This document shows, piece after piece, positions 7,779-24,390 of a DNA stretch of 64,000 nt. Both the position numbers and the translations under genes were made by a program. Each line of letters begins with the position of its first letter. The stretch's first letter is position 1. The notes beneath the pieces were generated by a model, which made no database searches, was not told the DNA's origin, and saw only the letters and a program-made list of their open reading frames with translations. The DNA lies in assembly GCF_004010195.1 (NCBI RefSeq), contig NC_057735.1, positions 40,964,291 to 41,028,290 of the forward strand, read 5' to 3'. Source of the DNA: Chiloscyllium plagiosum. Its lineage: Eukaryota.

Positions 7779-7879
7779 ATGTCAAAATCAGTTGAAAGCG
7801 TACTTGAGACTATTGATTCTGCCAGATGTGTGGCCGTTGAAATAACCAACAAAAGCAGCTATCCTTTAACTGAGCCTGT
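7779..7879 (+). CDS. Actinoporin-like protein A (ALP-A), coding exon 1
   Basis: acag|aATG context; encodes MSKSVESVLETIDSARCVAVEITNKSSYPLTEP(V), containing the R-x-V-x-V-E-I-x-N..L..P strand motif of actinoporins; donor GT|gtaagt at 7880, phase 2, joins in frame to 9249. Confidence 0.88.
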
Positions 7880-8867
7880 GTAAGTACAGCAATATGTATG
7901 TCCAATTATTTCTTGGGAAAACATCGAGAACTAAATACTTTGCAGTGCTTAATGTAAATGTTCATTGCATATGCTGACATTACACCCAGTGCTGACTTTC
8001 TTGTTCCTCGTAACATTAAAGTGGAGATTTTTTAAAAAAGTGACTAATGTTTATCTGAACATTAACTCCATCACAGCCAATGTGACAGCACAAGGAAAAC
8101 ATAATTGCACAGTTAAATAGTTTAATACTTTAATACTTTAGACAGATTGTGACCAGAAAATTTCATAATAATCTAAATCTTGAAGAAAAACACAAGTGAA
8201 TATTTTGAGGTATAGATTGGCATTGAATTCTGGCAAAGCTCTGGTTCCTTTTGACTGGCTTCCAATTTTTGAATCCCATAACCTGATCTCATCCAAAACT
8301 CTGCAAAGTCCTATTGACCATTCTTTACCCCTGTACTTGCTGGCTGCAGATCTCACTTTGAATCTTTTTTAAAAAGCTGGGTTAGTTAATGATTTCAGTT
8401 AAACAGTGTGCGCAAAATTATCCTAACGGGCTTATTTTCTTTTCCATCTTCATTACTCATCATCTTCTGCTTATGGAAATTGTAAATTGTGAATGTATTT
8501 AAGCAATGACTGCATTTTAAAATTGGCAAACTAGCTTTCAAATTCCCCCGTGTTCTCACCCTCTCTCTCTCACTCTCTCTCTATATATATAATACCACTC
8601 CTCCAACTTGTCGACCGTTTGAGATCTCAGTGCTTCTCTAATTTTCACTGGGGCAATCCTGATTTTAAGCATCCAAGCATCCAACTATTGACGGGTGTGG
8701 CTGCAGCTGCCAAGATCCTAAGCTGTGGAATACCCTCCCTGAACCTTTCTGCCTCTCCTCTGCTCTTTTCATCCTTAATATGCTCCTTAAAGTCAATCTC
8801 TTCAAGCAAGTTTTTAATCACCCGCCCGAATATGCTCTTCTGTGATTGATTTCAAATGCTCAAAAGG

Positions 8868-9120
8868 GCAACACAGCGGCTCAGTGGTTAGCACTGCTGC
8901 CTCACCAAGCCAACAACATAGGTTCAATTCCAGCCTCAGGCAACTGTCTACATGGAGTTTGCTCTGATTTCGTCACACAATCCAAAGATGTGTAGATTAG
9001 TTGAATTGTTCATGGGAAATTCAGGGTTGTAGGGGGTTGGGTCTGGGTGAGATGTTGTTTGGAGGATCAGTGTGCACTTGATGCGCTAAATGGCCTGCTT
9101 CGACACTGTAGGGATTTTAT
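8868..9120 (+). mobile_element. Diverged HE1/V-SINE-type SINE in the ALP-A intron
   Basis: ggctcagtggttagcactgctgcctcac..ggttcaattcc..tggagtttgc..ccaaagatgtg. Confidence 0.8.
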
Positions 9121-9248
9121 AATCATGATGTTGAAAAACAACTTGGGATGCCTTGTTATGGGCACTACACAAAAACCAGTTGTTTTAACCTAAACAATGC
9201 TTGGAAGTATCATATGTTTAAGATTATAATGCAATGTATATCTTACAG

Positions 9249-9657
9249 GACCTACCATTACAGTGGCCGTTTGAGCAGCCCTCCCTCGCCCAGCATCAAC
9301 CCAGGGGAAAGCGGAATATGTGTGTTCATCAAAACCCCATACACTGCCTGTGGCACTGTTGGGGTGTTAACCTACAAGTTCAGCAACACCCAAATCTCAC
9401 TGCTGGTCTCCAACCCTTATGACTACAGCAAGTATAGCATTGAGTACGCTCTGTATGTCCCTGATAGGACAATTGCCACTGACAACAATTTGTACACTAA
9501 GATGTACAATGAGCTGACCGAATCGCCAAACTTCACTAAGACTTCTCTGGGCAAAGGGAATGCATCTCTGAACATCAGAAAAGGAAACGTGGTCATTTCA
9601 GCTACTATGTCCAACGAGAAGAAAGCTATCGTCAAAGTAGACATTAGAGATGCGTAA
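9249..9657 (+). CDS. ALP-A terminal coding exon (anemone cytolysin/actinoporin fold; spliced protein 169 aa)
   Basis: Acceptor tcttacag|G; TYHYSG..P..I.PG..TACGTVGVLTY..SNPYDYSKYS..LYTKMY..ISATMS matches actinoporin motifs (GxVGVLxY, P-[WYF]-D, tyrosine cluster); TAA at 9655-9657; 101+409=510 nt in frame. Confidence 0.92.
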
Positions 9658-10106
9658 TGTTGTGGTAAAACTCTCACACTTAGAGAAGCATATACAAATT
9701 GCAGCGCACAGCATGCCTATTATACTGGTGCTAATCAGATCTATCTAAAGCACTTCACTGTTCCTCCTATCATTTAACTTCATCCCTAAATGTTTATTAA
9801 ATTCCTTATAAAATGTTCTGGTTAAATACCACCAACTATTCTTGACTAAACTTCTGCTTGAAAATTAAATGTTTCAATCCCCTCTGCTCAGACTTGTATT
9901 TTCTCCAGTGGCTTATTTGGCAGTTTGATTTGCAATTTGCAATTAATTTTCCATCATAAAGCTACTGTCAGTTATATTCAGTTTTATGGTCATTAATTCC
10001 TTTATGAAACAATATGACAATTCATTTTGATGTTAAAAGGAACAATATGAAAATATCACTGTTCAACATTTTCATCAAACTGGAATGTACCGACCTATGT
10101 TACAAT

Positions 10107-10112
10107 AATAAA
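10107..10112 (+). promoter_or_regulatory. Probable polyadenylation signal of ALP-A
   Basis: AATAAA about 450 nt after the stop, followed by a T/GT-rich tract (ttttcattgttttctgtttgctttt). Confidence 0.6.
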
Positions 10113-10299
10113 CAATTGATTAACTTTTTCATTGTTTTCTGTTTGCTTTTTGTATCACCCGCATAATAGCAACAAGTATTAGACTTACACATATATCTCC
10201 TAGACAAAAAAAAGCCTTCGTTATTGCTCTGCCTTCAATTGGAGTTTCCCACAAGTATTGTTACAGTTTGAGACCGCTGAGTTTGTCATGTCAGACATT

Positions 10300-21659: not shown

Positions 21660-23480
21660 ATAACTCACTGCAAGAACCTCTTATGCTGGAATGTCACAAG
21701 TCAGGATATCATGTGACTGTTTTAAAGTTACACTTGGGCCTGGAGTCTGCGTTTTAATACATCATCCCCCTTTTCCTTTTAAAGGTTAGGAATTTTTTTT
21801 ACAAACATGTACAATGATGACATAGATATATAATTTTGACATATAACATGATTAGATCACAATCTGTAGTGGGCCGTTTGTTGAATATCATTTGGGATTT
21901 ATCCTACTTGATACTTTCAGCATGGGTGATGAAATTCTAATTGGATAAGTTGACTTATTCTTTATAGATCTTGACCATTGGTCATCACAACATCACATGA
22001 CCGAGGCTGGATACAATGATCTGTCCACAGATCCATGTGATCGTGTGAAAATCTCAAAATCTGATCCTTAGTTTGAGTTGGTTCAATTTAGGATAACTGT
22101 TTGCACGCTCTTCTACCATTAAGACCTTCTTCCCAACCTCATGCACATGTGGTTGGATGGTTAAAGTTTGAGAAAAGAACTTTCCTCATCTATCTGCTGA
22201 AGCATGACAGCTATTGGTGAGGCTAAAGTTTGATGAGTAGCACATGGATATAGTGTAGTTATCCAAAAATCTTGGCAAGTTATGATTATCATAACTTTTA
22301 CTATGTGAATGGTGCATTCTGTGAGGCTTATACTGAGGCTAGTGAGGGGACGATGTAATATGTTAAACACTCCATTTGCTACATGCCCAGCGTACTGCAA
22401 ACCATTGTCAGGCACAATTTGTTGAGGAATATAATAGTCAATTTGTCAACAACTGATGCACTGGCAGTATCCTTGATTTTTGGCGCAAAAGGAAATTTGG
22501 TGAAATAGCCAGTCATTAGAATCTAATCATGTCTTTGGACATGGAAAATATCCAATATGTAAAGAAAAATCCTGTGGGAGATGAGAGGTGCCTTTAATTG
22601 CTTAGGTTTACGGAGTTGATATGTATCACACAACTTAATGAATTGATTATCGACGCTGGCACAATATATGGGTTCCCATGCCAACCTCTTGGGTTTTTTT
22701 CAGGATCCTCATGGCGCATATGAATATGATCCAGCATGGTTCAACATGGAGCTTGCAGAATAACGACCTGCTTGTCTTTGAAGATTACATTCTCAGAGAG
22801 TACGGACTCATTTCTGAATGCTAAGAAGAAATGTATGAGCTCAGGGACCTGAGCTGGTGTTCAGGCAAATGATGATAATTTTGCAGCTGATCATCAACTG
22901 TTGTAACTTGCTGAATCTGATCTGACTGGCTGTGACCAAAATGCGTAAGACTGTTGTTGAGACTACATTCCAGTTCAGATTTGCTAATAGCCACTCGTAG
23001 ATCTTTTATTTTTATTGGGATTTGGAAATTTGCTAACAATATTAGAATTGATCTTTAGGGAACCTAATTTGTGTCTACTTTGAAACAAGTAACCTTGAAA
23101 ACTTCCCACATGTTGTTGAAATATATCCTGGCTAACAGGTAATCCAAATAGTAATGTGAAGAAACTGGATCCATTGAAAGGTGTTTGAAAAGTTGTCAGT
23201 CCCTGTGACTGCTGAGAGATTTAAGGAACACTTTGGTTTTGACATCAAGCTTGGAAAAATGCTCAGTGTTTGAGATATTGGGGCTAAGCTCTTCCAGGGT
23301 TGGACTCTTAGCTGGGCATCTTTTTTAGTACAAACTTCAGGCACCTTGGAATTAAACAGACACGTATACTGCCATCTCTTCTCAAAACAGAAAATGTTCT
23401 GGTCAGCGAGAACCTCATTAGCCTGTTATGGTTTTGGTGCCTGTTCTTGAACTACCCACCCCCCAGCAGGACAGTTTTAG
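21660..23480 (-). mobile_element. Decayed Gypsy LTR-retrotransposon pol (RNase H/integrase) with PPT and start of the 3' LTR, inside the ALP-B intron
   Basis: Minus translation DIFHVQRHD*ILMTGYFTKFP and PDNGLQY resemble integrase core motifs (DxF...VDYFSKFP, SDNGPQY); purine tract aaaaggaaaaggggga then TG at about 21761. Confidence 0.7.
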
Positions 23481-23483
23481 CTG

Positions 23484-23675
23484 TACAGACGGTCCCCGAT
23501 TTACAGACATCTGACTTATGAATGCTTGTTGTTACGAATGCGATACCATATATGGTTGTAATTTTGAAGACCCGACAATGTAATTATGAACAGCTGCTTT
23601 CCACTGTCATGTTTTGTGTTCCAACTTGACAATAATTTGACTTGCAAACAGACTCCAGTATGAAACCCATTCCGA
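23484..23675. mobile_element. Tigger/pogo-like DNA transposon fragment
   Basis: ta|cagacggtccccgatttac..gacttatgaa..gttacgaa resembles Tigger-type terminal repeats. Confidence 0.5.
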
Positions 23676-23850
23676 ATCTCCCACTCTTCATTGAATCAAA
23701 AAAAAAATGATCATTGTTTTATCAGCAGGGAGATGGATCAGTTTCAACCTTTCCAACTGGGAAAAGCCTCAACTGCCTGGCAACTGGAACCAATGAATGT
23801 CGCAGCCAGGTTGGTAACTGTTTCAATCTTTGCAATTAAACTGGGTTTAA

Positions 23851-24263
23851 ATTAGATTAGATTAGATTACATTACAGTGTGGAAACAGGCCCTTCGGCCC
23901 AACAAGTCCACACCAACCCGCCACCCACCCATACCCCTACATTTACCCCTTACCTAACACTACGGGTAATTTAGCATGGCCAATTCACCTGACCTGCACA
24001 TCTTTGGACTGTGGGAGGAAACCGGAGCACTCAGAGGAAACCCACGCAGACACGGGGAGAACGTGCAAACTCCACACAGTCAGTCGCCTGAGGCGGGAAT
24101 TGAACCCGGGTCTCTGGCGCTGTGAGGCAGCAGTACTAACCACTGTGCCACCGTGCCACCCACAAAACATTTCTCTCTGACTAATGCTCCTAACACTCTG
24201 AGGCGGGAATGGAACCCGGCTCTCTGGTGCTGTGAGGCAGCAGTGCTAACCACTGTGCCACCG
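23851..24263 (-). mobile_element. HE1/V-SINE-type SINE plus an extra copy of its tRNA-like head
   Basis: Full copy at 23851-24160; head repeated at 24198-24263. Confidence 0.9.
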
Positions 24264-24304
24264 TTCCTGGTCTGGAACATACAGTTATACCTTTGAATAC
24301 TCAC

Positions 24305-24390
24305 GCAGGTGAGGTGAAGAATTGATTCTCGGTGTTGTTACTAATTTCAACATCAACAGCTCTATTAAATTCATCCGATGTTGCAGCCAT
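24305..24390 (-). CDS. ALP-B coding exon 1
   Basis: Minus strand ctttacag|aATG; MAATSDEFNRAVDVEISNNTENQFFTSP(A), homologous to ALP-A exon 1 (RAVDVEISN vs RCVAVEITN); donor GC|gtgagt, phase 2; 86+403=489 nt in frame. Confidence 0.88.

Follow-up and report, generated by a model that had tools for sequence, protein, structure and literature searches.

Two convergent actinoporin-like genes of the bamboo shark Chiloscyllium plagiosum: short leaders, diverged lipid-binding faces and a probable non-lytic role

Introduction

In a 64,000-nucleotide stretch of the genome of the bamboo shark Chiloscyllium plagiosum (assembly GCF_004010195.1, contig NC_057735.1, positions 40,964,291 to 41,028,290; hereafter the window), two genes, A on the plus strand and B on the minus strand, lie tail to tail and encode small proteins of the actinoporin-like family (PF06369). 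The first-pass annotation had described two convergent, intact genes with open frames, placed in a cartilaginous fish, and this description was confirmed: the frames are open at the positions given below, and the translations equal C. plagiosum RefSeq proteins. Automatic RefSeq models named after anemone toxins already exist for A (XP_043572224) and B (XP_043572918/919), so the genes were not overlooked and are in themselves no discovery. The interpretation favoured here, with moderate confidence, is that A and B are intact paralogues, duplicated before the shark–ray split, and that they act as leaderless, non-lytic proteins docking at membrane surfaces, each with a different lipid preference.

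True actinoporins carry a signal peptide and a propeptide. According to the excerpts from which published sources are cited throughout this work, actinoporins bind membranes via an aromatic cluster and a phosphocholine site and pierce them with the first ~30 residues (PMC7727798, PMC9526159, PMC12197748); this N-terminal stretch makes the pore wall and is dispensable for attachment (PMC7727798). In the literature examined, the vertebrate family has been the subject of one biochemical study, in zebrafish, and has no known job, yet in databases its members bear the names of anemone toxins, and surveys of platypus and stingray venom count them as toxins. Vertebrate actinoporin-like sequences are called uncharacterized in the excerpt of PMC5198562, and actinoporin is merely listed among peptide families in that of PMC9073008. 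The two paralogues of this non-venomous shark, which are small, single-domain and long conserved and have lipid faces of opposite chemistry, offer a clean pair for asking what the ligands of the family are and whether its members deserve their venom labels.

Already known were the family as such, its occurrence in vertebrates, elasmobranch transcriptome hits and the gene models. No literature on the elasmobranch cluster or on the divergence between A and B was found, a weak negative given that the search results were mostly off-topic and that the supplementary trees of PMC5198562, PMC6231492 and PMC9645577 may include shark sequences.

Gene structure and transcription

The first coding exon of gene A (7769-7879, plus strand) has its ATG at 7779 and ends in a phase-2 GT donor, giving a coding part of 101 nucleotides (7779-7879). 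A GT..AG intron of 1369 nucleotides (7880-9248) separates it from the last exon (9249-10128), which carries the PF06369 match, is coding as far as the TAA stop codon at 9655-9657 and continues into a 3' untranslated region (UTR) with AATAAA at 10107 and a poly(A) site at 10128-10129. The translation of these exons is identical to RefSeq XP_043572224.1 (P0024, 169 residues) on both sides of the split codon, exon 1 supplying residues 1-33.

Four sequencing runs (X1, X4, X6 and the single-cell run X19) were mapped over 7000-10300. Three of the four are taken to be RNA by guess, and their intron-free contigs are as expected from RNA; contig depth in these runs is no measure of expression. The splicing proposed for gene A was recovered exactly, the 7879>9249 joint (GT..AG) being present in all four runs: contigs of X1, X4 and X6 span it, as does a single raw read of X19. 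Contigs of X1 and X6 cover 7769-7879. The transcript is polyadenylated, with loose poly(A) ends at 10128-10129 in 63 + 26 reads of X19, 16 nucleotides past AATAAA.

Both first coding exons had earlier been described as preceded by the same acag|aATG context. The sequence acagaATG is indeed found at both starts; however, the acceptor of gene A that is used in RNA lies between 7768 and 7769, 10 nucleotides ahead of the ATG, where it follows a 93-nucleotide GT..AG intron and a non-coding 5' exon (7594-7675, plus strand). This exon, whose 5' end is undefined, was seen in one of the four runs, in a contig of X6 joining 7769. Since it is non-coding and the acceptor lies so close to the start codon, that transcript gains no signal peptide from upstream sequence. 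A hidden upstream coding exon for gene A was considered and rejected, the non-coding exon, in one of the four runs, being the sole upstream exon observed.

Two further features of gene A were recorded. Its intron contains a decayed short repeat near 8866-9120, where the read depth is repeat-derived. At window position 9965, in the 3' UTR, 81 of 141 single-cell reads differ by C/T, which is most simply explained by a heterozygous site.

On the minus strand, the first coding exon of gene B (24391-24305) has its ATG at 24390, right after a pyrimidine-rich acceptor; its coding part of 86 nucleotides (24390-24305) equals residues 1-28 of the RefSeq model P0028 and ends in a phase-2 GTGAGT donor. 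A phase-2 GT..AG intron of 6085 nucleotides (24304-18220) leads to the last coding exon (18219-17817), which ends with the TAG stop codon at 17819-17817, carries the PF06369 match and equals residues 30-162 of P0028. The splicing of gene B is taken from the splice signals in the sequence and from the RefSeq models (P0012 and P0028); the exon translation is identical to XP_043572919.1 (P0028, 162 residues) on both sides of the split codon. Candidate AATAAA signals on the same strand, identified from the sequence alone, lie near 17109, 16815 and 16796. RefSeq isoform X1 of B (P0012) begins instead at an ATG at 24420, with an in-frame extension of ten codons (24420-24391) that runs through the likely acceptor. 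This extension is not conserved in orthologues, among which such extensions vary, and the predicted model of the isoform has a predicted local distance difference test (pLDDT) score below 50 at residues 1-14.

The two stop codons are separated by 8159 nucleotides (9658-17816) holding both 3' UTRs, decayed retroelement fragments and two runs of N (14976-15475 and 16389-16587); a reverse transcriptase match (PF00078, E = 1e-15) lies at 13728-14294. The second exons of A and B are 50% identical, and all three signatures named in the first-pass annotation (GxVGVLTY, SNPYDY and LYxKMY) occur in both. Although BLASTP gave no match between the two first coding exons, they are regarded as homologous because they align through orthologues in a multiple alignment, and both end in phase-2 GT donors, in agreement with the shared phase-2 intron proposed earlier. 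Outside the coding exon, nucleotide matches between the A and B loci fall only on the intronic repeat.

Family membership and predicted fold

Both genes exceed the curated PF06369 cut-off of 25 bits through their second exons (31.6 bits for A and 38.9 bits for B), whereas the aegerolysin domain PF06355 gave no match up to E = 1 in either second exon. Actinoporin-like proteins carry P[WYF]D in their aromatic loop, and PYD is present there in both A and B. The predicted model of A (pLDDT 89.7) has a Foldseek template-modelling (TM) score of 0.84 to equinatoxin II (E = 1.4e-13), and that of B (pLDDT 89.3) aligns with FraC with a Z score of 20.1 and a root-mean-square deviation of 1.9 Å over 147 residues; as the first-pass annotation had anticipated, actinoporins are the best match of both models. 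A and B are members of the actinoporin-like family, and their predicted models show its beta-sandwich with helices at the flanks.

N-terminal leader and lipid-binding face

In equinatoxin II, 30 residues precede a conserved Arg. The corresponding leader comprises 15 residues in all 13 A-type proteins. In nine of the 12 B-type proteins it has 9 or 3 residues (9 being the usual value in sharks, and two skates having 3), and three models with mutually unalignable extensions have 24, 25 and 45; the figure for RefSeq isoform X1 of the window's B is 19. The predicted model of A has a helix stub of only six residues (residues 5-10), and the leader of B is without a helix. A helix of roughly 25-30 residues is needed to cross a bilayer, more than leaders of 15 (A) or 9 (B) residues can provide, so that pore formation by A or B appears unlikely. 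Furthermore, no hydrophobic signal segment was found in the first 30 residues, where the best nine-residue hydropathy is 1.14 for A and 0.28 for B; both proteins would for this reason be made in the cytosol.

The lipid-binding face was compared at the aromatic-cluster positions W112, Y113, W116, Y133, Y137 and Y138, which are occupied by L, Y, V, Y, Y and Y in B and by K, Y, E, Y, Y and N in A; B retains most of the cluster, and A has lost part of it. The W112 position is taken by Leu in all 12 B-type proteins and by Lys, Arg, Gln or Ser in all 13 A-type proteins, and the W116 position is charged in all 13 A-type and hydrophobic in all 12 B-type proteins; of the 25 proteins of both types, all retain Tyr113 and 24 retain Tyr133. 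The loop before helix 2, on which alone the basic array was scored, is basic in equinatoxin II and carries a net charge of 0 to -4 in A-type proteins and of -3 to -4 in 12 of 12 B-type proteins. The isoelectric point (pI) is 8.3 for A and 4.4 for B. Judged by residues, the faces of A and B have diverged consistently across orthologues. The Trp112Leu variant of equinatoxin II retains sphingomyelin specificity (PMC9526159). In pore stretch, signal peptide and basic loop, the sequences of A and B depart from those of true actinoporins, to which the two proteins would not belong.

Conservation and selection

Orthologues are 66-99% identical to the window's A protein (12 compared) and 62-94% identical to B (11 compared), conservation having been measured on proteins. 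In run X6, which derives from a related organism, seven of the seven listed coding differences are synonymous; with 34% of possible transitions being synonymous, the probability of this under neutrality is P = 6e-4. Between paralogues, the ratio of non-synonymous to synonymous substitution rates (dN/dS) is 0.21-0.38 where defined, these being rough NG86 estimates from one exon. A and B are under purifying selection. The open frames, conserved orthologues and synonymous X6 differences agree with the earlier statement that the pair has been kept intact. An artefact or pseudogene is ruled out by the spliced, polyadenylated transcripts of A, the RefSeq-identical open frames and the listed coding differences, all of which are synonymous.

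The five-copy cluster and its history

At least five actinoporin-like copies are present in the genome, all on this chromosome within about 450 kb and at the same five places in three genome searches. The three copies beyond A and B all have an open second exon. Two are on the minus strand (40541437-40541841 and 40554235-40554639), each with a first coding exon ending in the same phase-2 donor; they form a recent tandem pair (89% identical, synonymous divergence dS 0.20, dN/dS 0.26), and their aromatic loop is altered and contains a cysteine. The third, on the plus strand (40662931-40663335), has the same phase-2 donor, its exons probably pairing across about 16.5 kb, and clusters with B (support 99/94).

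In a midpoint-rooted tree of 55 rows (52 selected out of about 145 retrieved proteins, together with three second exons), calculated without an invertebrate outgroup or a holocephalan and with long branches for platypus and two other rows, all elasmobranch rows group together (support 100/97), and sharks and batoids occur together in both the A clade (95/95) and the B clade (100/99). The tree supports an A/B duplication inside the cartilaginous fishes, before the shark–ray split. The old local duplication claimed earlier stands in this respect; the pair is, however, only two of five copies. A recent A/B duplication was rejected, as synonymous sites are saturated (proportion of synonymous differences, pS, 0.79). 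In Hemiscyllium, C. punctatum, Leucoraja and Mustelus, A and B are numbered consecutively by accession or locus, which suggests that the neighbourhood has been kept across those species.

Distribution among vertebrates

A profile search returned 312 proteins, the best 120 of which include teleosts, sturgeons, coelacanth, Xenopus, Discoglossus, three turtles and platypus; birds, squamates, marsupials, placentals and holocephalans are absent from these best 120 of 312. The platypus member (P0112) contradicts the earlier statement that the family does not occur in mammals, and a platypus gene had in fact been published in 2010 (PMC2965387). P0112 is presumably this 'sea anemone cytolytic toxin-like' gene. 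Teleost sequences named 'actinoporin-like protein' (P0091, P0115) have the same 15-residue leader as A.

Expanded sets of actinoporin-like genes whose long hydrophobic leaders, at 27-31 residues, come near the anemone length occur in sturgeons, characiforms and some further ray-finned fishes (P0023, P0054, P0058, P0060, P0132 and others). In 96 further profile matches, the leader has at least 24 residues in 27, 19 or fewer in 36 and could not be anchored in 33. The long-leader ray-finned proteins look likelier than those of the shark to be true pore formers.

Neighbouring loci

Exons of the AP-4 complex subunit beta-1 lie at window positions 54561-60042 on the plus strand (E = 3e-76 to PDB entry 9u9i_B; Adaptin_N). 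The last exon of DCLRE1B/Apollo was found at about 40.80 Mb of the chromosome (L015:1189-2451, E = 9e-34), and a near-identical partial copy 11 kb downstream (L016:1016-2008, about 40.815 Mb) is either a recent partial duplication or an assembly duplicate. In human, DCLRE1B is head to head with AP4B1; in the bamboo shark, about 200 kb, including the A/B pair, separates the two. Two frames on the minus strand fell under the cut-off, one SCAN-like (43546-44034, E = 1e-5) and one SGNH/esterase-like (38582-39034). These are probably decayed fragments of a retroelement gag and of open reading frame 1 (ORF1) of a long interspersed nuclear element (LINE).

Discussion

The reading of A and B as non-lytic surface binders with different lipid preferences follows from their short leaders, the lack of a hydrophobic leader, their divergent faces and a non-lytic zebrafish relative with the leader length of A, a protein described as membrane-binding, not lytic and not sphingomyelin-specific (PMC8778704, PMC6231492). 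Both proteins would dock, as actinoporins do, through the aromatic loop and the second helix, which is intact in the predicted fold, and neither would form a pore. B would present a phosphocholine/sphingomyelin-type aromatic face (Leu at 112; Tyr at 113, 133 and 138) beside an acidic loop and without a helix, and A would present Lys at position 112 with Glu at position 116, its six-residue amphipathic helix stub being kept. Our guess at their task in the cell is that they protect membranes or recognize surfaces in barrier epithelia. The first-pass annotation had proposed a membrane-binding or innate-defence pair; membrane binding remains the likely role, while the pore and defence readings suffer from the truncated pore helix and the missing signal peptide.

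Several observations weigh against a leaderless, non-lytic pair under constraint. The stub of A is amphipathic (hydrophobic moment 0.60) and might insert part-way. The absence of a signal peptide was judged from a hydropathy window and gene models, not by SignalP, and for mussel relatives that also lack one, secretion by leaderless routes is predicted (PMC9645577). The zebrafish result (Dr1/apnl; Gutierrez-Aguirre 2006) is cited second-hand, via PMC8778704, PMC6231492 and PMC9526159. Up to two more X6 contig differences, near contig ends and outside the seven listed, could be non-synonymous. Among the tissues tested, the platypus gene was seen only in the venom gland (PMC2965387), and actinoporin-like transcripts are abundant in stingray spine (FPKM, fragments per kilobase per million, 757, 401 and 399), where three Potamotrygon species have actinoporin matches among their highest-ranking toxin-like transcripts (PMC6315956).

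We consider it unlikely that A and B are true pore-forming defence cytolysins which skin or mucosal cells release and which were recruited as stingray venom components. The Potamotrygon matches, a full actinoporin fold in the predicted models and the retention in B of most aromatic lipid-binding residues speak for this reading; a five-copy cluster with one recent pair would suit a defence family, and stickleback apnl expression shifts in gill, head kidney and spleen, a loose fit to defence (PMC4790908). However, the leaders have 15 and 9 residues against 30 and are not preceded by a signal peptide, the loop that is basic in equinatoxin II is neutral to acidic in A and acidic in every B-type protein, the pI of B is as low as 4.4, orthologues are conserved (62-99% identity) and not fast-evolving, and the venom listings are BLAST names only, without assays. 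Bamboo sharks are not known to have a venom apparatus.

It is improbable that helix-less B serves as a lipid-sensing adaptor which recruits a partner, either A or a separate pore protein, to an aegerolysin-like two-component pore. The very short leaders of B in sharks and skates, the helix-less binding components among its fold relatives (aegerolysins and Cry34, Z = 11.5-12.9), the adjacency of A and B suggested by their numbering in several species and their opposite charge would all be in keeping with such a system. However, tandem duplicates remain neighbours without interacting, the fold is much nearer to actinoporins (Z = 19-20) than to aegerolysins, and no partner pore protein was found among the 60 frames scanned in the window. 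We give just as little credence to glycan binding in the manner of the fungal fruit-body lectins of the same superfamily, in place of lipid head-group binding: these lectins share the fold without the long helix (Z about 11; atlas match 0.88) and both aromatic-cluster tryptophans are lost in A, but identity to lectins is 8-14% against 18-24% to actinoporins, and Tyr113 and Tyr133 are retained almost throughout. Least probable of all is a broader scenario in which an ancestral short-leader gene of jawed vertebrates, surviving in sharks, coelacanth, frogs, turtles and platypus, split in elasmobranchs, ahead of the shark–ray divergence, into B as a sphingomyelin-type sensor without a helix and A as its partner with a helix stub and a rewired face, the two forming a two-component membrane-damaging or membrane-sensing system of the skin that was later drawn into stingray venom tissue.

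Comparison with known systems

With the sea-anemone actinoporins equinatoxin II (1iaz), fragaceatoxin C (4tsy) and sticholysin II (1gwy), A and B have in common the fold, the PYDY motif, the Tyr113 and Tyr133 positions and 21-24% identity. They differ in that at most half of the pore-forming N-terminus is present, signal peptide and propeptide are lacking, Trp112 and Trp116 are replaced, the basic loop is absent and a phase-2 intron interrupts the coding region. In addition, they contain two or three cysteines, whereas actinoporins are without them (PMC5198562).

The best single-sequence PDB matches for A are bryoporin from moss (7pud) and HALT-1 from Hydra (7ekz), with E = 2e-5 and 3e-5, respectively. 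At position 112 bryoporin has Leu, as does B, and at position 138 Asn, as does A; its Met1-Gly25, longer than either shark leader, has been modelled as a transmembrane helix (PMC9526159). Both proteins are lytic, whereas the shark proteins are probably not.

Among vertebrates, the teleost actinoporin-like protein shares PF06369, the absence of a signal segment and the 15-residue leader of A, and teleost matches are 31-36% identical to A; in contrast to A and B, Trp is usually retained at position 116 in teleost forms, whose loop ahead of the aromatic motif is longer. The elasmobranch copies stand apart from the teleost forms as a clade of their own, and the nine-residue leader and acidic loop are peculiar to B. 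Platypus P0112 is 37% identical to A and has a 15-residue leader as in A. The platypus gene and the 'Avt-1 / Pse1b' transcripts of stingray spine belong to the same vertebrate family and, in the excerpts cited, are putative venom components by similarity only (PMC2965387, PMC6315956).

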